Shown: positions 1 to 60,038 of the stretch, in pieces | Position numbering within the stretch: position 1 is the first letter of the stretch | Layout of the letters: every line of letters starts with the position of its first letter | From: Squalus acanthias | Lineage: Eukaryota | NCBI GenBank assembly: GCA_030390025.1 | Contig: CM059432.1 | Span: forward strand, 65,350,001 to 65,414,000 | Direction: 5' to 3' | DNA length: 64,000 nucleotides | The notes under the pieces: generated by a model | Databases searched by the model: none | What the model saw: the letters and a program-made list of their open reading frames with translations, nothing else | Told to the model about the DNA's origin: nothing | Position numbers and translations under genes: made by a program

Positions 1-1089
1 AGCGACCGGAAGCTCGGGGTCACCCTTACGGACTGAACGGAGGTGTTCCGCAAAGCGGTCACCCAATCTGCGTTTGGTCTCCCCAATGTAGAGGAGACCA
101 CATCGTGAGCAGCGAATACAGTATACTAGATTGCAAGAAGTACAAGTAAATCGCTGTTTCACCTGGAAGGGGTGTTTGGGGCCCTGGAGAGTGGGAAGGG
201 GGGAGGTATAAGGGCAGGTGTTGCATCTCCTGCGCTTGCACGGGAAGGTGCCGGGCGAGGGGGAAGGGGTGCTGGGTGTGATAGAGGAGTGGACTAGGGT
301 GTCTCGGAGGGAGCGGTCCCTACGGAATGCTGAAAGGGGAGGTGAGGGGAAGATACGTTTGGTGGTGGGATCACGTTGGAGGTGGCGGAAATGGCGGAGG
401 ATGATCCGTTGAATGTGGCGGTTGGTGGGGTGAAAGGTGAGGACAAGGGGAACTCTATCGTGGTTCCGGGAGGGAGGGGCCGGGGTGAGGGCAGAAGTGT
501 GGGAGATAGAACGGACACGGTCGAGGGCCGTGTCGACCACGGTAGAGGGGAATCCTCGGTTGAGGAAAAAGGAAGACATGTCGGAAGCACTGGTATGGAA
601 GGTGGCATCGTCAGAGCAGATGCGGCGGAGATGGAGAAACTGGGAGAACGGAATAGAATCCTTACAGGAGGCGGGGTGGGAGGAAGTGTAGTCCAGGTAG
701 CTGTGGGAGTCAGTGGGCTTGTAGTGAATGCTGGTCAATAACCTATCCCCAGAGATGGAGACGGAGAAGTCGAGGAAGGGAAGGGAAGAGTCGGAGATGG
801 ACTATGTGAAGGTGAAGGCAGGGTGGCAAAGTGAATGAAATTGTCTAGTTCAGGGCGAGAGCAGGAAACGGCACCGATACAGTCATCAATGTACCGGAAA
901 AAGAGGTGAGGGAGGGGACCCGAGTAGGACTGGAACAAAGAGTGTTCCACATATCCCACGAAAAGGCAGGCATAGCTAGGACCCATGCGGGTACCCATAA
1001 CAACACCTTTGATTTGGAGGAAATGAGTGGAGTCAAAGGAGAAGTTGTTCAATGTGAGAACAAGTTCAGCCAGGCAGAGGAGGGTGGCG
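1..1089 (-). mobile_element. Penelope-like retroelement fragment (RT plus GIY-YIG endonuclease), 5'-truncated, runs off the window
   Basis: ORF 735..1052 has GVVMGTRMGPSYACLF and RYIDD; minus strand of 1-150 reads NLVYCIRCSRCGLLYIGETKRRLGDRFAEH (GIY-YIG). Confidence 0.9.
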
Positions 1090-2778: not shown

Positions 2779-3479
2779 GGCCCAGATTTTCCGTGGCCTA
2801 TGACCGTGGTGCATACGTGGCTGTAAGTGTCTCGCAAGTTCCGGGTTTCCGCATGGGCTGCTCATGCACAAAAACCCAGAACTTGTGATCTGTCAAGAAT
2901 CTTCTTGACAGGGCCTCCGCATCCCCGAGAAATGGACATTCGTTGGCAGAGAATTGGGCTATTCTTGCCCAGCGAATGCCCGTGAAACTCTTACACCTGG
3001 TAAAAGCAGGCGTAAGGCCTTCTTTTACCAGTGTAAGGGTGAAAATAAATATTAAAATACATTTTAACATTCAAAAACCTGTAAAATAAGTTTGTGTTTA
3101 CATTTATTTTTCAAAAAATAAAATTTTTGTTTTAAATGTTTAATGATACTGGATTTTAATTAATTTTAAACAAGTAATGATTTTTTTTATTTCAAGGTTA
3201 TGTAATTGTGATTTTTGGGTGATTCCTATTAAGCTTATGGGGATTAGGTACGTAAATGGAATCCCCATAAGCATAATGGGAATCCCCTTTCTGATTGGTT
3301 GGGCCGGCCCACGTGCTCCCAGGGACGCTTGTGAACCGCCTGCGCCCCTGGGATACGTGCGCCTCTAAGCAGGGCTACGCGTAGAGGCCAAGGAGCGCGA
3401 GTGTCCGTGGCTCCAGCACCATCAGGTAGGTGCATAGATTTATTGTGATTCGGAAGCCTCCGACCGCAAATTCAGGCCC
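2779..3479. mobile_element. Harbinger-type MITE
   Basis: Ends GGCCCAGATTTT / AAATTCAGGCCC; flanks AAC/AAG (imperfect 3-bp TSD). Confidence 0.65.
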
Positions 3480-6296: not shown

Positions 6297-8379
6297 GTGC
6301 CTTTAGATTTCAGGCGAAAAGTTTGCAATTTATTGAAGGAATGGACTGACACCTGTTATAGGCCAGATCATCCCAAGAGCCTTGTTTAATCATCGCTGTG
6401 GTTCAGCTCCAAATGGTCTAACAATCTGCCAGTTAATACAGCATTCACATTGTAATAGTGTAAATTGCCATGTTCAGTTGAAAGTAATTTGTGCTTCCTG
6501 TTAAGCACCAACAGCTGTGAAGTGTTCTGTGCACTTTTTCATTACTCATGTTTGAAGACAAACTGAGTTACTTTTCACTTATATTCCAAATAATGAACCC
6601 CAATGCCTAAATATCTTGAAGAAAATTACCACATGCACCTCTATGAAGCAACTTTGTTTTAATATGCATCATACTAAACAAGACAACCAGGGTATATAAG
6701 CATAAATCCTATATCACCATGAGATTTGAAAATAAAATACTTAGGTCTGAAAATTCCGGGGTCTCGGCTCCAATGCCACAACTCTGCAAAATGTTGACTC
6801 TGTCCCAAATCTCGGGAATGGGTTATTTAAATAGTCATGGTAGATGGCACACACCTGTAGAGGTATTTCAGAGGCGCCCACCATGTTATGCTTACGGTAG
6901 TCAGATCAGCATCCTAAGGGTTAAGAGGGACAAACATAATGGTCCAAAAATTGCAGTTGGAGGCGTACCTCCGGTGTATGCCTCCGACCCGCGAAAGGAA
7001 TACGACCCTACCTGATGGCGGCAAGGCTGCAAAAACTCGCGGTCTGACGCTGCGAGGGGGAGGGCAACGTAATGGCCCACGGTTCCCAGGGTGGTGTGGA
7101 AGCGTACCAGGGATCACATGGACCTGGTCCTCCAATCACAAAACAGAATTCCATTTTAATCATTTCTGAAGGAAATCCCACAATCAGATGTAATGGATTC
7201 CCAAAATCAGATAATTACAATTTACAGGATTGGAATTTAATTCCTAATTAGCTTCATTTCACAAACCTCACTAAAAATGTAATTTTTTTGACAACATTTT
7301 CGACATCATTAAAACTCTAATCTGGGCCAATATTTGCAGAAACTCATTTGATACAGTGTATGTGTATAATTTCTGAGATGAAAATGTTTAAATCATGCCT
7401 GAGCCATCCCTTTATGCTCTGTGCCTGTTTGCATCAACCGTAACATTTCCGTACGCAATTGCTGGCCAGTCAACTCTGTGTAAGCAATTGATTTTTCGTG
7501 GGCCATGCGGATGGCTTGTCAATGCGTACATTGACAGACTGCAAGTTTCAGATTTTGCGCATGCGCAAGTGCATGTGGAAATCTCAAACTTACGGTGGAT
7601 TTCAAAGGAGGTAAGATGGCGTACTCAGAGTATGCCGCCATACCCACCGCAAAATCCAGACCATTGTTTTCTGCTGCTTCAAAGGGTGTAAATGGGCATC
7701 AATGGAAAGGTAATCAATCAACTTTGGGGTTGATTACCTTTGTATTAGCAGACTTGAGGGCTTCCTTAAGCCCAGCATGGACCTACATCACATCTCAGTT
7801 GGACCTGGGCCTATTGATGACACACTGGGTGGAATTTCAGGGGTAGCCCAACAAATGTCCCCAGACACGGCCCTATAGCTTCCAGCAGACTTGGGGAGGG
7901 TAGATGGAAGACTTGTTCAGCTCCCCAGTGGAAATTGGGCCTCCAGACACACAGACTGGCAACCGAGCGGATATGGACACTGGCCCAAAATCCAATCCAC
8001 CCCCATGTACAATCGGCCCAACCTCCACCCTCCCATCCCACTGTAGTTTTGAGGCCTTAGTAACAGAATGTAAGAACAGAGGTAAGTATAAAACAAGAAA
8101 AAGCCATTAAATCTACAGATTCCAGAGACCATATGTAATTCGGAGGTAACCTTGTGACATGGTCGATAATTGGTTGGGAGTGGGAAACAGAGAGTAGGGA
8201 TGAAGGCAACATTCTCTGATTGGCAGGATATGACAAGTGGTGTTCCCCAGGGTCTGTACTGCACCCTCAACTTTTCACCATATATATTAATTACTTGGAT
8301 GAAGGAATAAACAGTGCTTTTCCAAGTGTGCAGATGACACTGAGTTAGGAGGCACAGTAAGTTGTATGATCTAGACAGA

Positions 8380-10148
8380 GGCTGGAATTTTGCTGGCGCT
8401 TAGCGGACAGGATCGTTGGCAGATCAGCTGTTAAATTTAAAATGATTGACAATGGATCGGGAACCCGCTGTCAAAATGCGCACACTGGACTTTCTCGATG
8501 TCGGGTCTGCCAGCGCTGAGCAGACCCAACACACAGCGGCGGGAGAGGCAATTAAAATCATTAATGGTTAGTTTACAGCTGCTTAACAATGGATTTTTCA
8601 CAGCTTTTTGGATTTGACAGGTTGTCCACCAGTTTTCTGCTGTGCCTAGACCTCGTCTGTGAAGCTGAGGTGGGAGGTCAGTGGCCATTGAATCAGCTGA
8701 TGAGTTGACAGCTTCAAATGTCAAGTCAAAGCTCCCAGCTGATTGAGACATGTTCCCTTAACCACTAGCTTCTCTAAACGGCATTTCCACGACAGATTCA
8801 GAATGCTGCAAATCTTTACACAAGTCTCCATCCAGAGTGACCTTATTACCTCTCCCACCATTGACAGATCGCTTCTGTCATCTTTACCTTACCTGCCATC
8901 TATTCCACCAGCATGGGTGCCCTTTATACTCTCTCACCTTGGTCCTCAGAATCCCACCATGATCAGCCCCAGCACCAGCAGCATCAAGCACACCAGCAGC
9001 ACTAACAACACCAACCTTCTCCGCAATCAACTGATGCTGCACAGGACACAGGGCATCAGCGCCTGATCACATTGCTGACCGGGAGGCCAGGGATGGCCTC
9101 ACCATGGCCGGATTTACTTCACTTGATGCTGTACATCCAGGCTGCCACATGATACGCCAGGTTGGCACCACCCTACACCAACACCATAAAGCATCTCTAC
9201 AATGCCCAAGCCATTCCTTTCACACTCATGACCATTGTGGGGTGTACCGTTATGTCTCACCATTCACTGCAACTCACTAAACCACTTCCAAAGGTGCACA
9301 CAAATCTGCTCAAGAAGGCAAAGTGTTGAAAATAAAGATTTCAATGTTTGACACCACATTAACAGAAACTTTACATGAAGATTGGATAAAACACCCAAGT
9401 GCCTACCCTTATGTGTTGTTAGTTGGTATGACTGCACTAGGATGAGGGTGAGTGTGAGGGGTGGCTAGTGAGATGGGGAAGCGATAATGTCAATAGAGAG
9501 GGATGAGTGGAGGTGCAAGGAAAGTTGGTGTGAGAGTAAGGATGTGCGGGAGTAGGGTAGGGAAGGCAGAGTGATGGGGATGTGATGAGTGGCACAGCAG
9601 GATGAGGTTGAGTATGGCTTTGCAGTAACGTTTCGTGATCTACTGAGATCATTGAAAGGTTTGCGCCACTGCAGCCTGGTCCTCCTGACCACATCCCTGC
9701 TAGTGCCCTCCTCTGCAATGTGCAACCAGGCTATGTTGGTCTCCTGGGGAGGTGTCTTCCGCCCATGGGAAGGGAAGAGGACCACCCTGTGTGCTGTGAC
9801 TCCCTCTATAAGCATATGGAGGGAGTCATGGAAGAGTCTGGGTGCAGCCCTGCACCTCTTTGCAGTGCTCGCCAGTGCTTGCAGCACCTCAATGCTGTCG
9901 AACACTGACAGCACAAATGTCAAACTAAATTTGGGCATGGTCCCTTTAAGGAAACCGGCTGATGATGCTTCATAAATGACCTCATCAGACCCGCTTCCTG
10001 CAATTGGCCGGCAAACGCGCTGGGCGGGCTTAACAAGCCCAATCATCGGAAAATCATTTCGGAGGCCGAGATGGAGCCAGTAGCGGGGCCGAGACCTGCC
10101 ACTGACATCGCCCGCCACGGACCCGCCGAGGTTCGTAAAATCGCGGCC
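8380..10148 (-). mobile_element. Non-autonomous PIF/Harbinger-type transposon with Myb/SANT ORF
   Basis: TIRs GGCTGGAATTTT / AAAATCGCGGCC; TSD AGA (8377-79, 10149-51); removal restores CR1 codons gat cta gac aga ctg. Confidence 0.88.
9465..9938 (-). CDS. Putative transposon Myb/SANT-like DNA-binding ORF (157 aa from the internal ATG)
   Basis: Part of ORF 9465..10226: AAPRLFHDSLHMLIEGVTAHRVVLFP...AWLHIAEE...RTRLQWRKPFNDL, resembling Harbinger Myb/SANT proteins; expression unknown. Confidence 0.55.
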   Translation of the reverse strand: MPKFSLTFVLSVFDSIEVLQALASTAKRCRAAPRLFHDSLHMLIEGVTAHRVVLFPSHGRKTPPQETNIAWLHIAEEGTSRDVVRRTRLQWRKPFNDLSRSRNVTAKPYSTSSCCATHHIPITLPSLPYSRTSLLSHQLSLHLHSSLSIDIIASPSH

Positions 10149-11174
10149 AGACTGTGTGTGTGGGTAAATCGATGGCAGATGGAGTTCATTGTGGGGAAGG
10201 GTGTCATCCACTTTGGATCTGAGCAAGGCAAATTGGAATATTTCTTTAATGGTGAGAAACTAAGAGCTTTGCAGCAGCAAAGGGATTTAGGTGTCCATGT
10301 ACACAAATTACTAAAAGCTAGTGGACAGGTACAAAAAGTAATCAAAAAGGCTAAAGGAATGTTGGCCTTTATCTCAAGGAGGTTGGAATTCAAAAGTGAG
10401 GAAGTGATGCTTCAGTTGTACAGAGCCTTTTTCAAACCCTAGCTGGAGAACGGAGTTCAGTTTTGGGCATCAAACCTCAGGAAAGATTTATTGACCTTGG
10501 AGGCTGTATAGCCCAGATTCACCAGAATGATACTAGGGCTTAAACGGTTAAATTATGTCAGGTTGCATAAACTTAGCTTGTATTCCCTTGAGTTTAGCAT
10601 GTTGAGACGTGATCTAATCGATGTGTTTAAAATCATAAAGGGATTTGATAGGATAGACACAGAGAAGCTATTTCCTATGGTGAGGGAATCCAGAACAAGA
10701 GGACATAAACTTAAAATTAGAGCTAGGTCATTTAGGAGTGAAATCAGGAAGCACATTTTCACATAAAAGGTAGTCGAAATCTGGAACTCTCCCCCCCAAA
10801 AAGCTGTGGATGCTCGGACAATTGAAATTTTCAACACTGAGTTCGATAGATTTCTGTCGGGAAAATTATCAAGGGATATGGAACAAAGGCAGATAAATAG
10901 AGTTGAGGTACAGATCAGCCATGTTCTAAGTGAATGCAGAACTGGCTTGAGGGGCTGAATGGCTTACTGCTGTTCCTATGTTCCAACCTAGCCTATCCTC
11001 TTGATTTGTCGTCCTAATCTAATGAAATACCAGTGCTTTCAATACAGCTTCAAATCATGAAAGTTTCATTGTAATTTCAGTTTGTACCCAAAGAACTCAA
11101 ACCATTAATCCTAGAGTAGGTTCTGGGCTTGGTATACTCCGGCACATTGTTCCTCACTCTGGACCTGACTCTTC

Positions 11175-13414
11175 GGCCGCCATTTCGCTGACCGAGGCGG
11201 GTCAGGGTGGCCGGGGTCAGTGTCGCGGTCCCAGCCCGCTGCCTACCGCAGCCTGCACTCTCCAAATGATTTTATGTTGATTGGGCTTGTTAAGCCCGCC
11301 CAGCGAGGTTCCCGGCCAATTAAAAGGAAGCGGGTCTGATGATGTCATTTGATAACGTGTCATCAGCCGGTTTCCTTAAAGGGGCCATGTTCAAATTGGT
11401 TTTGACAGTTCTGTTGCCAGTGTTCTACAGCATTGAGGTGCTGCAAACACTGACAAGCACTGCACAGAGGTGCATGGCTGCACCCAGGCTCTCCCATGAC
11501 TCCCTGCATATAGTTATGCAGGGAGTCACAGCACGCAGGGAGGTTCTCTTTTGTTTTTGTTCATGGGATGTGGGCGTCGCTGGCAAGGCCAGCATTTATT
11601 GCCCATCCCTAGTTGCCCTTGAGAAGGTGGTGGTGAGCCACCTTCTTGAACCGCTGCAGTCCGTGTGGTGAAGGTACTCCCATAGTGCTGTTAGGTAGGG
11701 AGTTCCAGGATTTTGACCCAGCGATGATGAAGGATCGACGATATATTTCCAAGTCAGGATGGTGTGTGACTTGAAGGGGAACTTGGAGGTGGTGGTGGTC
11801 CCATGCGCCTGCTGCCCTTGTCCTTCTAGGTGGTAGAGGTCGCAGGTTTGGGAGGTGCTGCCGAAAAAGCCTTGGCGAGTTGCTGCAGTGCATCTTGTAG
11901 ATGGTACACACTGCAGCCACAGTCAGTGGTGGAGGGAGTGAATGTTTAAGGTGGTGGATGGGGTGCCAATCAAGCGGGCTGCTTTGTCCTGGATGGTGTT
12001 GAGCTTCTTGAGTGTTGTTGGAGTTGCACTTCCCATGGGCGGAAGAGACCTCCCCAGGAGATCAACGCAGCCTGGTTGCACATTGCACAGGATTGCACAA
12101 GCAGCAATGTCGTCAGGAGGACCAGGCTGCAGTGGCACAAACCTTTCAAGGATCCCAGTAGATCACGAAAAGTTACTGGTAAGCCACACTCAACCTCATC
12201 CTGCAGTGCCACTCATCACATCCCCATCATTCTGCCCTCCCTACCCTACTCCTGCACATCTTTACTCACACCAACTTACCTTGCACCTCCACCCATCCCT
12301 CTCTATCTACATTATCACTTCCCCATCTCACTAGCCACCCCTCACACTCACCCTCATCCTACTGCAGGCACAGCAACTAACAACACGCAAGGGTAGGCAC
12401 TTGGGTGGTTTAGCCAATGTGCTGTCAAACATTGAAACCTTTATTTTCAGCACTTTGCTTTCTTGGACAGATTTGTGTGCACCTTTGGAAGTGGCTTAGC
12501 ACTTAGATACTGAATGGTGAGACATAAGGGTACCACCCCCCCACCCCCCCCACAACGGTGATGAGTGTGAAAGGAATGGCTTGGGCATTGTAAGGATGCT
12601 TTATGGTGTTGGTGGCGTGCTGCCAAACTGGCGCATCATTTGGCATCCAGGGTGTACAGCGTCAAGTGAAGTAAATCTGGCCACGGTGAGGCCATCCCTG
12701 GCGTCCTGGGCAGCAATGTGGTCGGGTGCTGATGTTGTGTCCTGTGCATCATCAGGTGATTGCGGAGAAGGCTGGTGTTGTTGTTGTTGCTGCTCAAAGT
12801 GCCCAGTGATGCTGGTGTTGGGGCAGATCTTGGTGGGATTCTGAGGACCAATGTGAAATATTTTCAAGGGCAACGATGCTGATGGAATAGATGGCAGGTG
12901 AGGTTGAGATGACAGAAGCAATCTGTCAATTGTGAGAGAGGTTATTCCAATGAGGTGACACTGGATGCAGAGTTGGCTCCAAACACTTGCAAGCTACAGA
13001 AAGCTCAATATGTCTTCCAAATGCAGTAACCAACAGTTTCTGAGCTTTGAAAGTGAACAGCTGTAACATGGGATCTTTTATTCAACTTTGGCAGTTGTCA
13101 GGTCATGAGATAATTCAATGCTGAATCCACTCACGACATGCTGAGCTGACGTGTTCCCCGAGCAGCAGGTAACCCGTGAGGGAGCATGTAAAATTGAAAT
13201 AACAGTTTATTGGATGTTAACAACCCATTTAATAATGTGAATTGCCTCCCCCGCCACTTGGTGTTGGGTCTGTTCAGCACCGACAGACCCGGCACCTGGG
13301 AGCCTCGCGTGGAGGTGGTTTGACAGCAGGTTCCCTACCCGCTGTCAATCTTTGCTATTTTGACAGCAGACCCGCCTCCGAACCCGCCCTCTGAGCGCCG
13401 GTAAAATTGAGCCC
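11175..13414 (+). mobile_element. Same Harbinger/Myb family, opposite orientation, with a LINE insertion
   Basis: TSD TTC on both sides; ends GGCCGCCATTT / AAAATTGAGCCC; Myb ORF pieces in 11339..11671 and 12076..12396. Confidence 0.85.
11551..12032 (-). mobile_element. LINE 3' end (CR1/L2 group) inserted in the Myb ORF
   Basis: Translates to KLNTIQDKAARLIG and SWNSLPNS; similar to 30446-30712. Confidence 0.8.
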
Positions 13415-13774
13415 TTCAAATTTCAAATGCTTCTTTGAGACACTTTTCATTCCTTTGCCATTTAATCTACATTTAAAATGACTCTACTTCCCATGGGTGT
13501 CGCTGATTCATTACTAACTTGTTTGTGTTACTTGGCCTCTGGTTAATACACCTCAGAACATTTTACAAATGATAGCTTCAGTTGGTACGAAGATCTAGAA
13601 CTCAGCCATTACGCTTTCGAGGTGTATTCATCTACTTCTTGTTGATGATGAAATTGCCATACAATCAACAAACTCATAAAAAACGATGAACAGCTTCAAA
13701 ATGACACAGCTCCCCAAAAACTAAAAAAATATATAATTGAAAAACTGCCCTGAATATAGGCCTATTACCAAGGC

Positions 13775-13965
13775 CACTGCTTTAAGCCACGTTAACCTCT
13801 CTGCCTTTCTCTCCTCCTTGAAGACGCTCCTTAAAACCTTCCTCTTTGACTAAGTTTTTGGTCATCTGTCCTAATAACTCCTTATGTGGCTCAGTGTCAA
13901 ATTGTGCCTGATAACAATCCTGTGAAGTGCCTTGGGATGTTTTACTATGATAAAGGCAAGTTGTT
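13775..13965 (+). mobile_element. L2 LINE 3' end
   Basis: Similar to 62640-62850. Confidence 0.7.
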
Positions 13966-14418
13966 AAAAAGACTTGCATTTATATAGTGCATTTCACGAC
14001 CCAAAGCGCTTTACAGCCAATGAAGTACTTTTTTTTTTAAGTAGAGTCACTGTTGTAATGTAGGAAATGCAGCAGCCAATTTGCGCTCAGCAAGCTCCCA
14101 CAAACAGCAATGTGATAATGACCAGATAATCTGTTTTGTTATGTTGATTGAGGGGTAAATATCGGCCAGGGCACCGGGGATAACTTTGCTGCTCTTCTTT
14201 GAAATAGTGCCATGGGATCTTTTACGTCCACCTGAGAGAGCTGATGGGGCCTCGGTTTAACGTCTCATCTGAAAGACAGCACCTCCGACCAGTGCAGCAC
14301 TCCCTCAGCACTGCACTGGAGTGTCAGCCAAGATTTTTGTGCTCAGGTCTCTGGAGTGGGACTTGAACCCACAACCTTCTGACTCAGAGGTGAGGGCACT
14401 ACCAACTGAGCCACTGAC
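13966..14418 (-). mobile_element. DeuSINE/SacSINE-like tRNA-derived SINE (family A)
   Basis: Minus-strand A box TGGCTCAGTTGG and B box GGTTCAAGTCC; tail tatataaatgcaagtc. Confidence 0.85.
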
Positions 14419-14839
14419 TGGCAAGTTGTTGTTGGTAGTAAGTTAAATTCCATTTTATTATCTTGGACAACAGGATTTTTATTAGTGTTTTGGGATCGCA
14501 TGTGGGCATTATTTGCCAGTGGTGAAAATATTGCTAATTCTTATATTATTTCAGTTCTTATCACAGTTGTGAATTGCCAGTGTCACTGGCAACTCGAGTT
14601 AACAGCCACTGAAAATGGATGCAGCGCTAACGTTGAAAAATTGGCTCTGGAGGTTGGCAATGTGGAGCACTGCGCTAACTTATTGTGCAACGCCCTCCTG
14701 GTGGCGTTAATGGAGGCCTCCGACCTGAAGTTCCCATCCACAGTCAGCATTGCTGCTTCTTACAGCCTCTGGGAGCGAGGCTGTGGAGTCCGCAAGGCAT
14801 TTTGGGTAATTAAAGGGACTATGAATTAAAGTGGCAATG

Positions 14840-15600
14840 CATTCATAGGATTACATAGGATATACAGCACATCTAACTCTATCAGCATAACCCTCTATTC
14901 CGTTCTCCCTCATATGCTTATCTAGCCTCCCCTTAAATGCATCTATATTATTCACTTCAACCACTCCCTGTGGTAGTGAGTTCCACATTCTCACCACCCT
15001 CTGGGTAAAGAAGTTTCTTCTGAATTCCCTATTTGATTTCTTGGTGACTATCTTATATTGATGGCCTCTAGTTTTGCTCTTCCCCACGAGTGGAAACATT
15101 CTCTCTGTATCTATTCTATCAAAAACTTCCATAATTTTAAAGACCTCTATTAGGTCACCCCTCAGCCTTCTATTTTCAAGAGAAAAGACATCCAGCCTGT
15201 TCATCCTTTCCTGATAGGTATACCCTCGCATTTCTGGTATCATCCTTGTAAATCTTCACTGCACCTTCTCCAGTGCCTCTATAGCCTTTTTATAATATGG
15301 CGACCAGAACTGTACTCCAAGTGTGGTCTAACCAAAGTTCGATACAAGTTTAGCATAACTTCTCTACTTTTCAATTCAATCCCCCGAGAAATAAACCCTA
15401 GTGCTTGGTTTGCTTTTTTATGTCCTGGTTAACCTGTGTCGCTACTTTCAGTGATCCCTTTGCTCTTCTATTGTTAGATTTGTATTTTCCAATTAATATG
15501 TGACCTCCCTATTTTTCTTACCAAAATGTAATACCTCACATTTAGCTGTGTTGAATTTCATTTGCCAATTATATGTCATTCTTCAAGTTTATTAATGTCT
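14840..15600 (-). mobile_element. CR1 LINE 3' fragment
   Basis: ORF 14851..15243: RRLRGDLIEVFKI...FFTQRVVRMWNSLP. Confidence 0.9.
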
Positions 15601-15774
15601 TCTTCAAAACTAAAAAAAATAAACTCAAGTGAAAAAATGTATTTTCAGCCCTTACTGCCTTTCAAAATAAACATAAGCATTAAAAATAATTCCCAAATGG
15701 GAGTCTTCAGCTCTTAAAGTTAAATTGTCTTCTACACCTTAAAAAAGGTAAAACTGCTTCAGCTCTAACAAAAA

Positions 15775-16200
15775 TGGCTCAGCAAGCCAGGGAAGGGGCA
15801 CTTCCCTGGACAACTCGGCTCCAGACCTTGGTCCAAACATGGACAAGACAGCTGAATTCCAGAGGCGAGGTGAGAGTGACTGCCTTTGACATCAAGGCAG
15901 CATTTGACTGAGAGTGGCATCAAGGAGCCCTGTAAAACTGAAGTCAATGGGAATGAGAAGGAATACTTTCCACTGGCTGGAGTTATACCTAGCACAAAAG
16001 AAGATGGTTGTGGTTGTTGGAGGGCAATCATCTCAGCCCCAGGACATTGCTGCAGGAGTTTCTCCGGGCAGTGTCCCAGCCCCAACCATCTTCAGCTGCT
16101 TCATCAATGACCTTCCCTCCATCATAAGGTCAGAAGTGGGGATGTTCGCTGATGATTGCACAGTGTTCAGTTCCATTCGCAACTTCTCAGATAATGAAGG
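15775..16200 (+). mobile_element. LINE RT fragment
   Basis: ORF 15914..16225: PTIFSCFINDLPSIIRSEVGMFADD. Confidence 0.8.
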
Positions 16201-17813
16201 TCAGCATGTTACCCGGTCCAATTAGAGGAAGCGGGTCTGCTGCTGTCATTTCATGACGTGTCATCAGCCGGTTTCCTTAAAGGGACCATGGCCACATTTG
16301 TCTTGACATTTGTGCTGTCAGTGTCCTACAGCATTGAGAGGCTGCAAACACTGACACAAAGGCACAGGGCTGCACCCAGGCTTTCCCATTTCCCACAGCA
16401 CACAGGGAGGTTCTCTTCCCTTCCCAAAGGCAGAATAGGCCTCCCCAGGAGATCAACACAGTCTGGTTGCACATTGCAGAGGAGGGCACAAGCAGGGATG
16501 TGATCAGGAAGACCTGGGTGCAGTGCCACAAATGTTTCAATGATCTCAGTAGAGCACAAAGCGTTAGTAGAAAGCCACACTCAATCTCATCCTGCTGTGC
16601 CTCTCATCACATCCCCATCACTCTGCCTTCCCTACCCTACTCCTGCACATCCTTACTCACACCAACTTACCATGCACCTCCACCCATCCCTCTCTATCTA
16701 TATTATCACATACCCATCTCACTAGCTACCCCTCACACTCACCCTCATCCTAGTGCAATCATACCAACTAACAACACACAAGGGTAGACACTTGGGTGTT
16801 TTATCAATGTCAATGTAAAGTTTCTGTTAATGTGGTGTCAAACATTGAAACCTTTATCTTCAACACTTTGCTTTCTTGGACAGATTCGTGTGCACCTTTG
16901 GAAGTGGCTTAGTGAGTTGCAATGAATGGTGAGACATAACGGTACCCTCTGCAATGGTGCTGAGTGTAAAAGGAATGGCTTAGGCATTGTAGGGATGCTT
17001 TATGGTGTTGGTGTGGGCTGGTGCCAACCTGGCGCATCATGTGGTAGCCAGGGTGAACAGCATCAAGTGAAGTAAATCTGGCCATGATAAGGCCATCGCT
17101 GGCCTCCCGGGCAGCAATGTGGTCAGGTGCTGATGCCCGCTGTCCTGTGCAGCATCAGGTGATTGTGGAGAAGGTTGGTGTTGTTGTTGGTGCTGCTGGT
17201 GTGCCTGGTGCTGCTGGTGTTGGGGCTGATCGTGTTGGGATCCTGAGGACCAAGGTGAGAGAGTGTAAAGGGCACCCATGTTGATGAAATAGATGGCAGG
17301 TGAAGTAGAGATGACAGAAGCATTCTGTCAATGGTGAGAGAGTTCTTCCAATGAGGTAAGAGTGGATGGAGAGTGCAAACTGGAAAGCCAGCAGAATGTG
17401 TGCTGGAAATGGAGTGAGAAAAAGCTTCTGCTTGAGGAAAGTGACTATCAGTCAGGTGGGAGCTTTTACTGTACATTTGAAGCTGTCAAGTAATCAGCTG
17501 GAGCAATGGCCACTGAACTCCCACCTAAGCTTGATAGCCGTGCTCTGCACACAGCAGGGATCCTGTAGTCATGAAGTTAAAGACAAAAGGTAAGTGAAAA
17601 AAGGCTGTTCAGCATCTGGAAACTAGATGCTAATCATTTTAATTAGGTCCCCCACTGCTGCCGGTCGGGTCTGCTCAGTGTTGACAGACCCGACATTTGG
17701 AAAGGCGCATGGCGGCAGGTTCACAGCGGGGTCCCAACCCTCTGCAAAAATAAACCACTTTCCCATCCAACCCACCACCGATCCTACCCGCTAACCCCCC
17801 GGAAAATTCCGTC
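16201..17813 (+). mobile_element. Harbinger/Myb family copy, left end truncated
   Basis: Collinear with 11175-13414; Myb remnant in ORFs 16258..16503 and 16467..16787; ends GAAAATTCCGTC. Confidence 0.82.
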
Positions 17814-17814
17814 T

Positions 17815-18045
17815 TAGTTCCTGCGCTCTGAAACTCCATTCCTAAACCCCTCCCACCTCTTCACTTCTCTCCCTTTAGCAATCTTCTCAAAACCTACCTT
17901 TCATATAAGCATTCAGTCAACCCTCCTAAACTCCCTCCCCAGCTCTGTATCCAGGTCCTCCTTCTGCAAGGGTCTAAGAAGTGCCTTGGGACATTTTGTA
18001 CATTAAAGGCCCTATATAAATGCGTATATCGTTGCTGTTGTTGCT
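17815..18045 (+). mobile_element. Degenerate L2 3' end
   Basis: Similar to 62620-62850. Confidence 0.55.
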
Positions 18046-18124
18046 GTGAAACAGAAACATCTGTCAACACTCAGAAATACACAAAAAAAAATCCAATCCT
18101 TTACAATTTAATAAGGGACACAAT

Positions 18125-19000
18125 GGCTGGAATTTTGCCGGCGCTCAGGGGGTGGGTTTGGAGGCGGGACATCCGGCAAAATCGCCAAGATTGACAGCGG
18201 GTCGGAAACCTGCTGTCAACCCGCCTCCAAACAATCTTCCCAAGTGTCGGGTCCCCGATTTGTGCATGGACCCGACACCTACCGGCGGGAAGAATATTAT
18301 AGGCACTTAACTGCTTGTTAACAGGTTGTTAACAGGCAGTTAAGAGGGTTTTTGCAATTTCAACAGGTGTACTGCGGGCTTCCCAACGTCCGGACACTAC
18401 GCCAGGTAAGTGTGGCGTGCTGTGGGTCTACTTTAATGTTTGTGCACTGATGACAGCTGCAGAAGTGGTGTAAAGGATCCAATAGTACACTGGTGAGTTT
18501 CAGAGGTAAGGAAATGTTGGGAAAATTATTTTTAATGTATTTAGACTTTTCTGTAGGTGACAAGTTTTGAATTGTTTCTGTTGTCCCACCTCATTGGGAG
18601 AACCCCTCTCACCAGTGACAGATCACTTCTGTAACCTCACCTGCAGCTGCTATCTGTTCTAGCCTAAGGAGGGAGTCACTGGAGAGCTTGGGTGCAAGGA
18701 CTCACCTTTGTACAGTGATTGTCAATGTTTGCAGCACCTCTATACTGTCAAACACTGAAAAATCACCTGTCAAAAAAATTGTGCGTGGCCCCTTTAAGAA
18801 AACTGGCAGATGACGCGTCATCGACTGACGTCATCTGACACCGGCTTTCTCTTAATTGGCCGGCAAGCCCGCAGGGTGGGCTTAACAAGGCCAATTGACA
18901 CTAAATCACGTCTGTGTGTCGGACGTCGTTGGGGGCGGGATTGGAACCCAGAAGGCAGCTGTCCCGCCCCCAAGCCACACCAAGAGGTAAGATCGCGGCC
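18125..19000. mobile_element. Shorter Harbinger-type derivative with the same termini as 8380-10148
   Basis: GGCTGGAATTTT ... AAGATCGCGGCC; TSD AAT. Confidence 0.85.
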
Positions 19001-19792
19001 AATGTATTGATTCAATTGCCATCAAGTTGGATTTATCACTCTTTGCTTTCTTGGAATCTCTCTGAAAATGCAGCACAGAAAATGCATTCAGTAAGCAAAA
19101 ATAGCCCTTAATTCACTCTAGGAAAATTGCATTCAGCTGACATGTTACTTGATGCCTATTTAAATCTACAGAAAAAATAGGATTATTAAATGTTTGACAA
19201 AAGGAAAATATCCTGTGTCTTTAAAAGAGCGACTCTATTTAAATTGTCTTCTATAAAACACAGCTATTCCATTAAAGCATATAAGCAAACAAATGTGTGC
19301 CTGAGCAAATGTTCCTTTTAAATGAATATATAAAAGTATAGTCATTAACTAACATGTTTAGTCTTCCGAGCACCCAAGTACTTAGTCTTATGGAAACTCG
19401 TGCAGAAGATTTCTTCCCCCATTCATAGGATGAATTACACGATGAAAGAGGGTTAATTTAATCACCAGACCTTTGGTCACTTTTAATATAAGCATTAACC
19501 CGTTAAAATAGTGGACAAAGGAATGCCATACAAACACAAGTATTCATGCACTAATATTGGAAAAAGTGTTTTCCATAATATTGTTCAAAAACTCTGAGAA
19601 GAAATTTCCTAAGAATTATAAACGAACATCATTACCATTCAAAGTAATTACATCATTAATGTTTTAATGAGTTTGGTTTTATTTCTTATTAATTCACTTT
19701 CTCTCTTCTAATGCGCAGCTTTGTAGCCAATAAAAGGTGCAATTTAGCACTGATGTGTAGTGGAGGTCGTCAATAATGCTAATAAAACTTAC

Positions 19793-20814: not shown

Positions 20815-21658
20815 GGGCTGGATTTTCATTGACCTGTGGAGTCGGGTTTGGAGGCGTGTGGGGGGTTAAAGTTGCAGATTTGGGGGTCCCGACCCCATCC
20901 CGCCCCCAACCCGCCTCCATGCCAGTTTCGCTGGCGGCGGGTACCCGACCTGTGCTGGGACCCGACTCCCCGAGGCGGGCAGGGATTAGTGACAATTAAC
21001 TGCCTGTTAACAGGTAGTTAACAGGCAGTTTTTTGCCTAATCCCTATTTTGACGGCTGAAATGTGGACTTCCCGACAGGTGCCAACCACGCCAAGTTATC
21101 GGGGCGGACCATGGGTCTGCAGGGGTTGGAGGGGTCGATATGTCCGGTGGGCAGGTGAGTGATGGGTGTATGTGTGCAGAGGTAAGTGTGTAAGGTAAGT
21201 GCAAAGTGTGGGAAAAAGTTTTACCTACCTTAACTTCCTCCTGCAGGTGTCAGCCCTTCAGTTCTCGGGAGTCAGAAATCTCACCAGCACAGAAAGCAGA
21301 AAGGCCGTGGTGCTGTCAAAAACTGCAGCCTTCTGTTTTCTGTGCTGGAATGATTTCTAACTCAGCCTGAGAGGAAGGACTCAAGTTAGAAATCATATTG
21401 TGAGTGTTTGACAGCTTCACAGAGCTGTCAAACGCTGATATTTCATCTGTCAAAAGCTCTTGACAGATGAAATGTCAATCTGTGACATCACCTGTTGCCA
21501 GGTGGCCCTTAATTGGCCTGCTGAGCTCACTGGGCGGGCTCAACAAGGTCAATCAAGGGAAAATACAGTGGGTTGGCCACAAGTCGATGGAGGCGGGACT
21601 GCAACCCAAAAAGTGGGATTCACGACCCTAACCCGATCCCAGTATCAAAATCCAGCCC
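20815..21658. mobile_element. Harbinger-type MITE
   Basis: Perfect 12-bp TIR GGGCTGGATTTT; TSD ATT; inverted relative of 53656-54531. Confidence 0.9.
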
Positions 21659-21711: not shown

Positions 21712-23351
21712 GGCCAGAATTTGTTGTCAAAAATTTTTTTTTATTCGTTCATGGGATGTGGGTGTCGCTGGCAAGGCCAGCATTTATTGTCAATCCCTAA
21801 TTGCCCTTGAGAAGGTAGTGGTGAGCCGCCTTCTTATACAACTGAGTGGCTTGCTAGGCCATTTCAGAGGGCAGTTAAGAGTCAACCACATTGCTGTGGG
21901 TCTGGAGTCACATATAGGCCAGACCAGGTAAGGGCAGCAGATTTCCTTCCTGAAAGGGCATTCGTGAACCAGATAGGTTTTTACAATCCGATAGTTTCAT
22001 GGTCACCATTACTGATACTAGCTTTTTATTTCAGATTTATTTAATTAACTGAATTTAAATTCCCCAGCTGCCGTGGTGGGATTATGAACACACATCTCCG
22101 GATCTATTAGTCTAGGCCTCTGGATTACTAGCCCAGTAACATTACCATTATGCTACCATTCCAGAATAATGGTGAGGCTAATGGCGCTCGCTGTTACTAA
22201 TGCGTTAATAGTGCAGCAACTTCAGGCGAGGCACAGACGTGCAGTTAAATGCAAATATTCAAAAGTTGCTGTCTGAGTTGCACCGCTCCGCTGTTAGCTT
22301 TGTGAAAAGCAGGAGGAAGAGGAGCAGGAGGAGGTCAGAGTGCCGGTGTATCGACCAGCAGCAGCACGCGAGCACACGAGCACATGGCTGCTCGGGATGC
22401 AAGGGATGAACTTATCATGGCCAGATTTGCTTAGGTTGCCCAAGTTGGCAAATGTCCTTGGCTCCATCCTAAGACATCACTGACAATGGACATGACTCTC
22501 TGGCCTCCTTTCACTCAGGCCACCAACCTGACAACGCAAGTGTGGCGGAGCCCGCAATGTGGAGCTGCCTAAGGCGAAAGAACAGATGCCATAACGCCAA
22601 CATTTTGGCATCAAATCATTTTAATGCTTTCCAACAGGGATGGCATTTCATCAATACACAGAAACATTCTCCCAATGTGCACACAGATCTGGAGGTTATA
22701 TCCCTTGCCAGCTGTACCCACACAGCCTTGGTTTCTTTGGCAGGCATCTTCCTCCCAGATGAGTGGAAGAGCACCTCCCTGCTAGCTGTCACCCCCTCAA
22801 ACAACATTTGCAGCGCCTCATCCGAGAGCCTCGGGGAGGTCCTTGCCTTGGAATTGGACATAGTGGTTTCTCAGAATATGTTGCAGGTGATGCAGCATAG
22901 GCAGAAATCCTGTGGAATGAGCCAAGGCAGCAAGAAGCCATAAAATCAGGCTGGAAAAGTGATGTCAGCAGAGGCGAGTTTCAGTCCCAAAATTGACCAA
23001 GGGCATCCCACACCTCTGAAATCAAGTGGCCAATCAGAGGAAAATCGCAATTTTTTGAAAACTACCAGTGGAGGCGGGTTTCAAACCCACCCAAACCAAA
23101 ACCCGCCTCTATCTCGCCTCCAATGGGAAAATCGCCCCCCTCCCCCAGTCGTTAAATCTGATTGGTTAAGGAGATACCCTGTTGGTTGTCCTGTTCACTC
23201 AGGTTCCAGATGCTCTGGTTCACTTGCTGCGATGTTATTAGCTCACACATTCAGCAACTTTGTGGGAAACATTTTTTTCCTGAAGGATGCAGAGACAAGT
23301 TTAACTAATGACAGACACCGTTAGATGCCCTGCTACAGCAAAATCTGGCCC
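21712..23351. mobile_element. Composite Harbinger-type element containing a SINE plus transposase-tail and Myb remnants
   Basis: GGCCAGAATTT / AAAATCTGGCCC; TSD ATT; HMAARDARDELIMARFA* at 22381-22434 (+); Myb-like ORF 22616..22861 (-). Confidence 0.75.
21731..22161 (-). mobile_element. SINE family B
   Basis: Reverse complement of 47495-47872; A-rich tail at about 21734. Confidence 0.8.
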
Positions 23352-37523: not shown

Positions 37524-38090
37524 GGCCCTGAAATTCCTGGGGCTGAAGATGGTGGAAAGCCTGATTTCTGCCCATGGTTGCCAGGAATTTGGGGTGGAAC
37601 CTGGCTTCGCCATAATTCTGCCCAATTTACTGCGGCCCTTTAGATTCCTGTGGGGTAGGGGCATGGTGGATCTACATCAAGGAGGCATAACTAGCGGAGT
37701 TCCCAGGCTTTCTTGGGAAATTCCATCCAGGACGCCTCCTGATATGTCTGTTGATAGCAGGCAATTGTACCATTACAGGCCTAGTAAAGACCCCAAACCT
37801 TTCCTAGAGTAAGGTAATCAATCTCAGAGCAGATTAATTGAGCTAGCCCTGAAAGCACAATAACTCTGCTAGGAGTGAAGATTCTTTCTTCAGATATTTT
37901 CTGCGGCCTAGAAGGACCTGAGGCCACCTCAAGCAGGATAAATGTGGGCATATTGAGGCAAATATTGCTGAAGTGCCCTTACATGTGCCCTTTCACTTAT
38001 CTGATTATGTAAATATCTTCATCTGGACGAGAGTGGTCGGGCCGTCACACACTTACACTGATGGAACGGACTCCCAAGAATTTCAGGGCC
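37524..38090. mobile_element. Harbinger-type MITE
   Basis: Perfect 13-bp TIR GGCCCTGAAATTC; TSD AAA. Confidence 0.85.
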
Positions 38091-38253: not shown

Positions 38254-38699
38254 CTGAAAATTAATCAGAAATGGAACCATAGAAACATTGGTACAGAAGA
38301 ACCCGTTTGGTCAATTTCAGTGCCAGTTCACCTGCCATTATCTACTGTAATTCCATTTCTCTGCCCTTTCCCCATTTCCTTTAATATTTTTCTCCACAAG
38401 TCTCTATCTAATTCCCTCTAATTCTCAGCATCCTTATTCTGACCCTCAGAAGCCCTCTTCCACCCATAGCTCCATATTTATTCCACATTGCAAAGTGAAG
38501 CTGTGCAATATATCGCAAATCACAATGATTTGTGACAGGTTCGCTGGTCTGTATTTTAGGAAGTTCCCAGGCCTAGTCAAGCAATTGTATCTCTGCTTTA
38601 CCATTCTTAAGGTGTGTTTTATGATAGTTTTTGTTGCTGCATGGACCTCATTATTCCTGTCTTCAGCAGGTGTATGTGAACGCCACACAGGTATTGTAA

Positions 38700-39400
38700 G
38701 CCAGGGATGTAGTGGGTAGCCTTGGTCTCAAAGGAGCTAACATTACACTTTTTTCACAGGATCAAACAGAAGAACAATGGATTATTGTAAAATAAAGGTG
38801 TCATAACTATGGATAGGAAAATGTGCATTAACCAGCACAATCCATGCAAATAGACACAAACTAGCCACACATTGTTAAATGGGAAGCCCTGTGATGAAGG
38901 CACCACTATTGTGGGCAGGACTTGCAAAGCTATGTCTATACAATTAATGATACCATGGAATTTGAGAAACACTGTAATCTGGGTAAACCCAGGGCTCTCT
39001 TCTACTGTTTCTAGTTGTCCATTCGGAAGTGATGGAGTTGTTTGTTCTGGCAAACAATGCAACAATCATCTGCTTTATAATTGAATGGACTTCAGATTGG
39101 CTGATGTTGCTAATATGCCCTATGGCAGCCTGGAGGGAGCCTGAGGCAATCATTTTAAGGACTGCAGTGACCTTTACAGCAACTGAAGTTGTTGGCTTCA
39201 AGACATGCCAGCACATGTCAGGCATCCAGTCTTCCCCCTTCGAGCACCGTACAAGCTCCAGAGATGCAGCTAGCAGTAGCTTCCTCTCAGCCCCCAAGTT
39301 GCCATGAGAGGAAGGCCAATTCAGTCCCACAACACCTGTAGTACAGAAGCACCCAACCACCTCTCATGAGGTGCACCTAGGATGAGCACTAGACATAGAA
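38700..39400 (-). pseudogene. Degenerate Harbinger (HARBI1-like) transposase fragment
   Basis: VAVKVTAVLKMIASGSLQAAIGHISNISQSEVHSIIKQMIVAL (HTH region) and HGIINCIDIAL (first DDE motif region) in shifted frames. Confidence 0.7.
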
Positions 39401-39639
39401 TAGGAGAAAGAAAGGCATGTTTAGACTCCCAGGGGTAGCACGGTATAAGGAGAGAGTGGCTCATGTTCACTTTTGACTTACTTGTAATAACAACTTGCAT
39501 TTATTTAATGCTTTTAAAGTAGGAAAAACATCCCAAGATGCTTCATAGAGGCATAATTTAAAAATGGACACTGAGGCAAAGAAGGAGGCATTAGGAGGGT
39601 GAGCAAAATCTTAGTCAAACAGGTGGAAGGGGTGGGGGT

Positions 39640-50019: not shown

Positions 50020-51830
50020 ATCATAGAATCATAGAAAGTTACAGCACGGAAGGAGGCCGTTTCGGCCCATCGTGTCCGCGTGGGCCAAAAAAGAGCTATC
50101 CAGCCTAATCCCACTTCCCAGCTCTTGGTCCATAGCCCTGTAGGTTAGAGCATCCCAAGTGATCAACCAAGTACTTTTTAAATGTGGTTAGGGTTCCTGC
50201 CTCTACCATCCTTTCAGGCAGTGAGTTCCAGACCCCCACAACCCTCTGGGTGAAGACATTTCCTTCAAATCCCCTCTAAACCTTTCACCAATTACTTTAA
50301 ATCTGTGCCCCCTGGTTTTTGACCCCTCTGCCAAGGGAAATAGGTCCTTTCTATCCACTTTATCTATGCCCCTCATAATTTTATACACATCAATAAGGTC
50401 TCCCCTCAGCCTCCTCTGTTCCAAGGTAAACAGACCCAGACTATCCAGTCTTTCCTCATAGCTAAGAATCTCTACTCCCAGCAACATCCTTGTAAATCTC
50501 CTCTGTGCCCTCTCGAGTGCAATCACATCTTTCCTGTAATGTGGTGACCAGAACTGCACGCACTACTCTAGCTGAGGCCTAACTAGTGATTTATACATTT
50601 CAAGCATAACCCCCCTGCTCTTGTATTCTATGCCACGGCTAATAAAGGGCAAGTATTCCGTATGCCTTCTTAACCACCTTATCTACCTGCCCTGCTACCT
50701 TCAGGGATCTGTGGACATGCACTCCAAGGTCCTTTTGTTCCTCTACACTACTCAGTGTCCCACCATTTAATGTGTATTCCCTTTCCTTGTTAGCCCTCCC
50801 CAAATGCATTACCTCACACTTCTCCGGATTGAATTCCATTTACCACTGTTCTGCCCACCTGACCAATTTATTGATATCTTCCTGCAGTCTACAGCTTCCT
50901 TCTTCAGTATCAACCACACAGCCGAATTTAGTATCATCTGCAAGCTTCTTAATCATACCCCCTATATTCAAGTCTAGATCATTGATATATACCACAAAAA
51001 GCAAGGGACCTAGTACTGAGCCCTGCAGAACCCCACTGGAAACAGCCTTCCAGTCACAAAAATACCCAACAACCATTACCCTCTGCTGCCTGACTCCGAG
51101 CCTGTTTTGAATCCAGCTTGACACTTTGCCCTGGATCCCATGGGCTTTTAACTTTGTGACCAGTCTGCCATGTGGAATCTTATCAAAAGCCTTGCTAAAG
51201 TCCATATACACTACATCAAACGCACTACCCTTATCTACCCTCCTTGTTACTTCCTCAAAAAATTCAATCAAGTTTGTCAGACACGACCTTCCCTTAACAA
51301 ACCTGTGCTGACTATCCTTGATTTATCTGTGTCTTCCTAAATGAAAATTTATCCTGTCCTTCAGAATTCTTTCCAATAATTTTCCCACCACTGAGGTTAG
51401 GCTGACTGGCCTGTAATTACTCGGTCTATCCTTTCCTCCCTTTTTAAATAAGGGTACCACATTAGCAGTCCTCCGGCACCACACCTGAAGCCAGAGACGA
51501 TTGAAAAATGATGCTATTTCCTCTTTTGCTTCGCTTAACAGCATTTCATCTGGGCCTGGGGATTTATCCACTTTTAAAGCTGCTAAACTCCTTAATATTT
51601 CCTCTCTCACTATGTTTATTTCATCTAATATTTCACACTCCTCCCCGCTGATAGCAATGTCTGCTTCGCCCCTCTCCTTTGTGAAAACAGACGCAAAGTA
51701 TTCAATAAGAACCCTACCGACGTCTCCAGCCTCCACATACAGATTACCCTCATGATCTCTAATAGGCCCTACCCTTTCTTTAGTTATCCTCTTACTCTTA
51801 ATATATTTATAAAACATCTTTGGGTTTTCG
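50020..51830 (-). mobile_element. CR1 LINE, same subfamily as 39640-42190, inverted
   Basis: ORFs 51323..51817, 50840..51271 and 50203..50559 nearly match ORFs 40399..41514 and 41688..41921. Confidence 0.95.
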
Positions 51831-58359: not shown

Positions 58360-60038
58360 GGCCGGAATTTTGCTGGCGCTCAGAGGGTGGGTTCGGAGGT
58401 GGGTCCGCTGTCTTAATCACAAAGATTGACAGCGGGGCGGTATTCCGCTCTGAACCCGCCTCCTTGTGAGTTTCCCTAGTGTCGGCTCTGCCTGCGCTTT
58501 GTAGACCTGGCACTAAGCAGCGGGTCAGGCAATTCAGATAGTTAAGAGAGTGTTTAAAGCAATTTAATCAGCATTTTATCAGGTACAAACCATTTTCCCA
58601 AGTTTTCCACGAGGTTCACGTCACTCAGGGATCACGCCAGGTAAGTGTGTTGGCTTTTTAACAACTCTCCATTTCTGTGATTAGGTGAAAGCTGCAAAAG
58701 TGGTATAAAACCTACCATTTCACAGCTGTTCACTTTCCAATCTTAGAGGCTGGAGCCTTCAGGATTTGAATACACTTTTCAGCTTTATGGAGGGTTGAAG
58801 TGTTTGGAGCAAACTCTCGATCCAGTGTCACCTCCTTGGAGCAACCTCTCTCACCATTGACAGATCGCTTCTGTCATCTCAACTTCAGCTGCCAGCTATT
58901 CCATCAGCATCTTGAAAAAATCTCACCTTGGTCCTCAGAATCCCAACACGATTAGCCCCAACGCCAACATCACCAGTCCCACCAGCAGCACCAACAACAA
59001 CACCAAACTTCTCCATAATCACCTGATGCTGCACAGGACACAGGGCATCAGCACCCGAGCACATTGCTGCCTGGGAGGCCAAGGATGGCCTCACCATGGA
59101 CAGATTTACTTCACTTGACGCTGTACACCCTGGCTGACACATGATGCCAGGTTGGTACCAGCCCACATCAACACCATAAAGCATCCCTACAATGCCCAAG
59201 CCATTCCTTTCACACTCATCACCATTGCGAGGGTACCGTTATGTCTCACCATTCACTCCAACTCACTAAGCTACTTCCAAAGGTGCACACAAATCTGTTC
59301 AAGAAGGCAAAGTGTTGAAAATAAAGATTTCATTGTTTGACAACACATTAACAGAAACTTCACATGAACATTGGTGATAACATCCAAGTGCCTACCCTTG
59401 TGTGTTATTGGTATGATTGGACAAGGATGAGGGTGAGGGTGGGTGTGAGGGGTGGCTAGTGAGATGGGGAAGTGATAATGTAGATAGAGAGGGATGGGTG
59501 GAGGTGCAAGGTAAGTTGATGCGAGTAAGGATGTGTGGGAGTAGGGTAGGGAAGGCAGAATGATGGGGATGTGATGAGTGGCACAGCAGGATGAGGCTGA
59601 ATGTGGCTTTGCAGTAACATTCTGTGATCTACTGAGATCATTGCAGTTTGCGCCACTGCATGCAACCAGGCTGTATTGGTCTCTTGGGAAGGTGTCTTCC
59701 GCCTATTGGAAGGGAAAAGAACCTCTCTGCGTGCTGTGACTCCCTCCATAAGCATATGGAGGGAGTAATGGGAGAGCCTGGGTGCAGTCATGCACCTTTG
59801 TGCAGTGCTTGTCAGTGTTTGTAGCATCTCAATGCTGTAGAGCACTGACAGCACAACTGTCAAAATGATTGTGGACATGGTCCCTTTAAGGAAACAGGCT
59901 GATGACGTGTCATCAAATGAAGTCATCAGACCCGCCTCCTATTAATTGGCCGGGAACCTCGCAGGGCGGGCTTAACAAGCCCCATCAACGAAATATCTTG
60001 TTGGAGGCTGGGATTGACACAGATGCGGGGTCCAGCCC
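58360..60038 (-). mobile_element. Harbinger/Myb family copy inserted in an old CR1
   Basis: TSD TCT; removal restores RKFFTQRVINTW on the minus strand; Myb ORF 59456..59926 with an internal deletion. Confidence 0.87.

Follow-up and report, generated by a model that had tools for sequence, protein, structure and literature searches.

Transposition of Harbinger elements needs two proteins, the transposase and its Myb-like partner, the latter binding terminal or subterminal DNA and carrying the transposase into the nucleus, according to the available text of two studies (PMC13668399, PMC9179366). For the zebrafish Harbinger3_DR system the target has been given as AAACACCWGGTCTTT (PMC3016246, excerpted text). 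In the nematode Caenorhabditis inopinata, the available part of PMC13668399 describes intact spliced gene models at 14 of 19 MADF loci, several of them expressed, in a recently active family of low divergence. Host genes of the MSANTD group, as presented in the accessible portion of PMC9392472, evolve under negative selection. Expanded Myb-bearing Harbingers have been described in the newt (PMC5741667, partial text), and a 2022 fish survey, in the portion available, did not find Harbinger in elephant shark and called for testing of other cartilaginous fish (PMC9179366). A definition of Myb-only Harbingers was not found in the available text of either the newt or the teleost study (PMC5741667, PMC9179366). 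Among the open-literature papers listed, none described the elasmobranch Harbinger family considered below, which may already bear a name in Repbase or Dfam.

A preliminary description of the 64-kb stretch of DNA analysed here (the window) had proposed four copies of a Harbinger family that kept only its Myb/SANT partner gene. Since Myb/MADF-only Harbingers have been published in C. inopinata, even the best case of that proposal would not have constituted a new category. Self-comparison of the window followed by alignment recovered the four collinear elements as proposed (Table 1), with copy-to-copy identities of 76.5–81.2% over the alignment when all were placed in one orientation. TSDs of 3 bp were present in four of five relatives, those of copies 1, 2 and 4 being the ones previously claimed, and none of the four matched the classical TWA consensus. 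The fifth relative, absent from the preliminary description, retains ends and acceptor as in the copies, with nearly all of both gene remnants deleted. Terminal inverted repeats as in PIF/Harbinger were seen in copies 1, 2 and 4 and in the fifth relative, copy 3 having lost one end; in copy 4 the Myb-side repeat is reduced to ~ 8 nt, followed by a deletion of ~ 53 nt. As TSDs and terminal repeats surround the collinear copies, the family is real and its members moved as a unit. The assignment to a non-autonomous Harbinger family with a Myb/SANT domain also stands, on the strength of ends, TSDs and Pfam matches.

Table 1. Elements of the family in the window, and features of copy 1 with their counterparts in other copies
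Feature	Position	Strand	Remarks
Copy 1 of non-autonomous Harbinger derivative	8380..10148		TSD AGA; terminal repeats 10/14 matching
Copy 2	11175..13414		Opposite orientation to copy 1; TSD TTC; terminal repeats 9/14 matching
Copy 3	16201..17814		Myb-side terminus gone, no TSD; adjoins LINE RT fragment 15908-16222
Copy 4	58360..60038		TSD TCT; terminal repeats 7/14 matching
Fifth, shorter relative	18125..19000		876 nt; TSD AAT; terminal repeats 9/14 matching
Transposase-side arm, putative promoter/5'UTR intron	8560..8850	+	Lineage-specific
Acceptor-like TGACAG	8862..8867	+	Putative end of transposase-gene 5'UTR intron
Probable transposase N-terminal remnant (MGAL...HDQ)	8913..9002	+	Followed by a stop in copy 1
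Transposase C-terminal remnant, copy 1	9068..9118	+	13/17 identities with the final residues of P0031
Transposase tail, copy 2	12670-12735	-	
Transposase tail, copy 3	17071-17121	-	16/17 identical to the end of P0031
Transposase tail, copy 4	59060-59110	+	
AATAAA	9331..9336	+	Downstream of transposase tail; putative poly(A) signal
Intron-like C/T/A-rich stretch	9433..9629	-	Starts with GT at 9629-9628; copy-1 frame reads through; putative intron
Copy-1 open frame	9465..9938	-	157 aa from ATG at 9938: 30 residues without homologue, Myb domain, read-through tail
Myb/SANT domain exon (Myb_DNA-bind_5), decayed	9630..9848	-	F35L, V78G, C91W, Pro in helix 3

Collectively, the family occupies 7.7 kb of the window (~ 12%) and is an abundant PIF/Harbinger non-autonomous element represented by real copies. 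Beyond the window, all 30 bins of copy 1 were covered by contigs (80% likeness) from a public DNA run of which ~ 55% was read; these numbered 51,520, a figure that does not equal copy number. In addition, 42–49% of the words of copy 1 were present in 14 runs from five organisms.

The absence of a visible DDE core was confirmed inside the elements: when four transposases (P0031 and P0034–P0036) were aligned to the five elements with tblastn, no core match was obtained at E ≤ 0.1 and only the C-terminal tail was found. This tail, corresponding to the last 17 residues of P0031, was detected in all four copies, in each of which the strand opposite the Myb frame reads ...HIAA.EA.DGL.MARFT or similar. 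A profile of the tail, built from the four copies and a second family, matched a single protein at E ≤ 10 among 3765 candidates. This was P0031 (E = 6.3e-4), a 'putative nuclease HARBI1' of the sawshark Pristiophorus that contains DDE_Tnp_4 and ends exactly in the matched stretch. The view that the lineage kept only the Myb partner thus fails, the C-terminal remnant of the transposase being present in every copy. Judged from sequence, the DDE core is lost by deletion and the transposase is not wholly gone. An autonomous Harbinger was ruled out, no intact DDE transposase being present in the five elements.

The stretch MGAL...HDQ in copies 1 and 3 probably represents the first codons of the transposase. 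Its local alignment score against the N-terminus of P0035 was reached by 8 of 2000 shuffles for copy 1 and by none of 2000 for copy 3; the N-termini of P0034 and P0036 gave no match, leaving one match among three transposases tested. The remnant is preceded by TGACAG, which occurs in all five relatives 483–499 nt from the element end. AATAAA is found in three of the four copies, copy 3 having one base changed. The Myb domain and the transposase C-tail lie on opposite strands, tail to tail. A separate, Leu-rich segment of P0031 (residues 67–87) matches the antisense of the elements' N-terminal stub, with 14/21 identities to copy 1; this hints at similar sequence near the sawshark gene and is probably a gene-model artefact.

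Several other mobile elements share the window. A second, unrelated Harbinger derivative of the same design was identified at 22315–23139, in which a Myb domain cut before helix 3 (22619–22870, minus strand; Pfam E = 0.0017) is faced by a transposase C-tail (22366–22431, plus strand) reading ...ARFA* and matching P0031 at 14/21 positions. TIR-like starts at 21712, 23139 and 23351, the first and last flanked by ATT, are candidate ends of this element. A decayed Harbinger DDE fossil at 38470–39183 (minus strand) has several stops and is 32–36% identical to P0034–P0036 over ~ 240 aa (E down to 6e-32), with a TIR-like sequence nearby at 37623. Of the 227 stop-to-stop frames with at least 70 aa, 93 were scanned against Pfam and gave no DDE domain, although tblastn did find this fossil. 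A non-coding Harbinger MITE family of ~ 850 nt has copies at 20815–21658 and 53656–54531 (77% alike; TSDs ATT and ATA) whose terminal motifs are common with those of the family studied here, and Harbinger-like TIR pairs were seen at 55643–56334 (TSD ATA) and 2779–3478. LINE endonuclease/RT pieces at 39575–42190, 50024–51829 and 61581–62558 include an inverted pair of ~ 1.8 kb with 92% identity, and an open frame at 1–801 (minus strand) with a weak GIY-YIG match may be Penelope-like.

With respect to the Myb side, the frame of copy 1 proved fully open, as previously claimed, and the similar ATG context GG[A/G]CCATG was confirmed in all four copies; the fifth relative has ACG in place of ATG. 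In an HMM check against Myb_DNA-bind_5, as had been suggested, copy 1 matched just above the cut-off (E = 1.9e-4, 21.8 bits, cut-off 21.7), followed by copy 3 (E = 0.022) and copy 4 (E = 0.19), giving matches in three of nine scanned frames. When 1.84 billion proteins were searched with a profile made from five unjoined pieces of the window, 20 matched at E ≤ 0.001. All of them belong to the same Pfam family, and 16 of the 17 looked up were named from sharks or rays (the other being unnamed), so the host is most likely an elasmobranch. All 20 aligned only to profile positions 24–101, and the first 23 profile residues had no match in any of them. Most full-length relatives start 3–10 residues before the PRF motif; the ATG of the preliminary description lies 32 residues before it. 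Over ~ 70 residues the domain of copy 1 is 32–49% identical to its relatives, and against a profile built from the relatives alone it still reached 80 bits, within the 53–117 obtained by leave-one-out. AlphaFold predicted three helices between residues 37 and 105 (pLDDT 82–95 at residues 41–100) and nothing structured past residue 105.

The Myb frame is intact in only one of the four copies. In copy 2 the domain is split by a 476-nt retroelement-like insertion (~ 11553–12028), copy 3 has 9- and 25-nt deletions, and copy 4 has a 47 + 2 nt deletion that removes the end of helix 2. Since the loss of 49 nt within the Myb domain shifts helix 3 out of frame, copy 4 is broken, contrary to its description as open with a deletion. 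Two contig sets from runs guessed to be RNA cover all 30 bins of copy 1, with no strand or level attached, and among 15 of 81 joints listed from runs guessed to be RNA there was none at the 9629 donor, neither observation bearing on expression.

Immediately after the domain, following the seventh residue from the conserved Asp, (E/D/G)K comes next in 10 of 13 aligned relatives and V in the remaining three. In all four copies a GTT stands at exactly this point: copy 3 reads GTTAGT, and copies 1, 2 and 4 read GTTACT. Homology stops at the GT, and we infer that the GT at 9629 is the donor of intron 1 and that the stretch following it is intron rather than coding sequence. When the post-domain parts of 19 relatives were compared with the elements, no match was obtained beyond repeated Myb domains (P0001, P0004) and one hit at E = 0.088, and both this result and the unstructured AlphaFold tail agree with the intron reading. 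The Myb gene therefore looks like it was also cut down, with the remainder of the frame after the GT being intron read-through. A protein end ...PSH* had been described as shared by all copies. In fact, copies 2 and 3 close their Myb frame with ...NNTQG* and have PSH* in another frame. Copies 1 and 4 arrive at PSH* via a private 2-nt insertion near 9535 and via the 47 + 2 nt deletion, respectively; the agreement is accidental and stems from two private frameshifts.

Selection on the Myb exon was assessed as pN/pS relative to the majority of copies, with 7 of 72 codons dropped as unresolved and gapped codons dropped per copy. For the four copies, pN/pS was 0.86 in the Myb domain (95% CI 0.42–1.89; 32 N, 11 S) and 0.93 over codons 1–102 (95% CI 0.51–1.79; 46 N, 15 S), against a median of 0.87 (0.55–1.52) in a neutral simulation that used the element's own non-coding spectrum with rates scaled 1.3-fold to exon divergence. 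An omega of 0.3 was rejected for the domain (p = 0.001) and for codons 1–102 (p = 4e-5); an omega of 0.5 for the domain alone was not rejected (p = 0.076). Taken alone, copies 1 and 4 gave pN/pS values of 0.40 and 0.29, on just 7–8 changes each, and the 30-residue leader gave 1.13. Exon divergence was 0.070 versus 0.034–0.060 per non-CpG site in non-coding DNA. The simulated chance of at least one of four copies staying open under neutrality was 0.44.

Any TE copy should decay neutrally once inserted; changes shared between copies therefore weigh more. F35L occurs in four of four copies, C91W in three of four, and V78 is lost in three of three, at positions kept by 12–13 of 13 relatives (F35L is also present in one relative, P0013); a helix-3 proline is found in copies 1 and 2. 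Because these substitutions at near-invariant residues are common to several copies, the damage would predate amplification, which suggests that it was present in the masters. The 80-bit score of copy 1, the F35L of P0013 and the low ratios of copies 1 and 4 speak against this. Within the limits of four copies, then, the ORF is broken in three of them and neutrally decaying (pN/pS 0.86–0.93), and the anatomy of the element fits a plain deletion derivative; on both counts the outcome goes against the preliminary description.

We consider the family to be, very probably, a plain double-deletion derivative of PIF/Harbinger, high in copy number and mobilised in trans, a reading that rests on four copies and on an omega interval reaching down to 0.42. 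Its parent would have been a two-gene element with transposase and Myb-like genes arranged tail to tail. One deletion would have fused the opening few dozen codons of the transposase with its last ~ 20, so that the HTH and the DDE core were lost, and the other would have brought Myb intron 1 up against the shared 3' region, with loss of what remained of the Myb gene. Read from one terminus to the other, the element would then comprise the start of the transposase, one deletion, the end of the transposase, the 3' region, the other deletion, and intron 1 followed by exon 1 of the Myb gene. With both termini kept, the transposase and Myb protein of autonomous relatives could have cut and pasted the element in trans, generating the 3-bp TSDs; as both ends are present, the element can do without its own copy of either gene. 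The 64-kb window showed no autonomous parent, and the DDE fossil at 38470–39183 has no DNA match to the elements. With the high confidence we attach to the double-deletion reading as a whole, the copy-1 ORF would have stayed open by chance and would not be a gene maintained by selection.

Divergence is unevenly distributed along the element. The core (8850–10050) is 81–94% alike among copies in 100-nt windows, and the arms fall into lineages: copies 1 and 3 align over 267 nt at 76% and copies 2 and 4 over 163 nt at 79%, the alignment of copies 1 and 4 being no better than shuffles. The arms vary by lineage, yet the distance from terminus to acceptor stays constant at 483–499 nt; donors GTAAGT/GTGAGT at position 281–282 occur only in copies 2 and 4 and the fifth relative. 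The least diverged core window coincides with the intron-like tract (9620–9433; 0.032 versus a mean of 0.059, p = 0.017 by column permutation in a single post-hoc scan of four copies that takes columns as independent), and between copies the tract has fewer non-CpG differences than the Myb exon (25/730 versus 53/756, Fisher p = 0.002). This pattern could stem from recombination that placed a core on older arms, from a function in cis, or from mutation running slower locally.

It is conceivable, if unlikely, that the core was kept for its DNA, with a cis element in the Myb promoter, exon or intron raising mobilisation and the core copied onto older arms by gene conversion or by template switching while a gap was repaired. 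Such an add-on is compatible with the double-deletion derivative. In a variant that we hold to be similarly doubtful, a portable core (Myb exon 1, intron and fused transposase stubs) would have spread by recombination onto different arms, the tract boosting mobilisation in cis or the truncated Myb protein of a master titrating the ends. Besides the conserved tract, the similarity of the core in all copies and the split of the arms into lineages 1–3 and 2–4 favour such readings, and mPing offers a precedent of mobility tuned by internal sequences (PMC9921582, text available in part). However, the low divergence may be no more than slower mutation of a CpG-poor, strand-skewed tract, and arms may just evolve fast. 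Moreover, the fifth relative (TSD AAT) transposed without the tract, which is therefore not required, and an Rfam search over 8300–19100 gave a single match (E = 0.87), outside the elements.

Compared with the double-deletion derivative, a functional short Myb protein encoded by an unseen master, acting as a trans helper or as an end-occupying repressor, with the window copies as its dead offspring, appears improbable. The whole Myb domain and an in-frame ATG were kept in all four copies, copy 1 is open with three predicted helices, and post-insertion neutral decay alone does not test a master. Nevertheless, near-invariant residues are altered across copies and hence in the masters. The copies have no common C-terminus, running instead into two different read-through frames; the leader has no homologue, evolves at the pN/pS of 1.13 given above and begins with ACG in the fifth relative; and ~ 75–80% of a full-length relative (~ 300–520 aa) is missing. 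The part of a Myb-like protein that binds the transposase lies outside its DNA-binding domain, and such a stub could repress but hardly help. MADF-only Harbinger-1M_cIno of C. inopinata, for which a role of this kind has been proposed (PMC13668399, available text), does provide a precedent, but in the nematode family the 14 intact loci of 19 are near-identical, compared with one of four and ~ 14% divergence here. A functional Myb-only derivative of the Harbinger-1M_cIno type was also considered as a class for these elements and rejected, the gene ending after the domain and one of four frames being open.

Domestication of copy 1 as an MSANTD/NAIF1-like host gene has next to no likelihood: the open 157-codon frame with its Pfam match at the cut-off and the host-annotated Myb-like relatives in sharks and rays would be in keeping with it, but copy 1 lies inside a TSD-flanked, multi-copy element with TIRs (four copies in 64 kb), carries F35L, S36F, V78G, C91W and the helix-3 Pro, owes its end to a private 2-nt insertion, found no relative at E ≤ 0.01 among 28 candidates of 85–272 aa in a protein search with its frame, and belongs to paralogous copies whose pN/pS of 0.86–0.93 indicates no purifying selection among them.

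The importance of these observations is modest: a very abundant Harbinger derivative is documented in an elasmobranch, and a trap is exposed in which Myb exon 1 plus intron read-through mimics a short 'Myb-only' gene. If core-swapping or a cis element were real, it would be relevant to the question of how certain deletion derivatives come to amplify beyond their parents, and a portable core would amount to a selfish 'core cassette' passed from one non-autonomous lineage to another.

Among known systems, the zebrafish Harbinger3_DR system and mPing, derived from Ping, share with this family short terminal repeats starting with GG, a 3-bp TSD, absence of the DDE core and an origin by internal deletion (PMC13668399, in its available part). 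The flanks loosely fit the Harbinger3_DR target, since 7 of the 8 elements listed have Y directly preceding the TSD and 6 of 8 have T four bases after it. Unlike MITEs, the elements are long (1.7 kb) and contain recognisable stubs of both genes, and their TSDs are neither TWA nor CWG. Harbinger-1M_cIno and Harbinger-2M_cIno of C. inopinata are likewise ~ 1.6–1.7 kb long and multi-copy, with a Myb/MADF domain and no DDE (PMC13668399, same partial text). In contrast to that family, the Myb gene of the present elements breaks off behind the domain, three of four copies are broken, evolution is neutral and the transposase tail is kept; the decayed Harbinger-2M_cIno is the nearer analogue in state. 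The elasmobranch Myb-like proteins P0001–P0020 have full lengths of ~ 300–520 aa and a conserved (E/D)K.A.N..E continuation that the elements are without, and the HARBI1-like transposases P0031 and P0034–P0036 end in 17 residues up to 16/17 identical to the element tails. Finally, the domesticated Harbinger Myb genes MSANTD1–4 and NAIF1 share Pfam domain family and origin with the domain of the elements, which, unlike those genes, are multi-copy and neutrally decaying.
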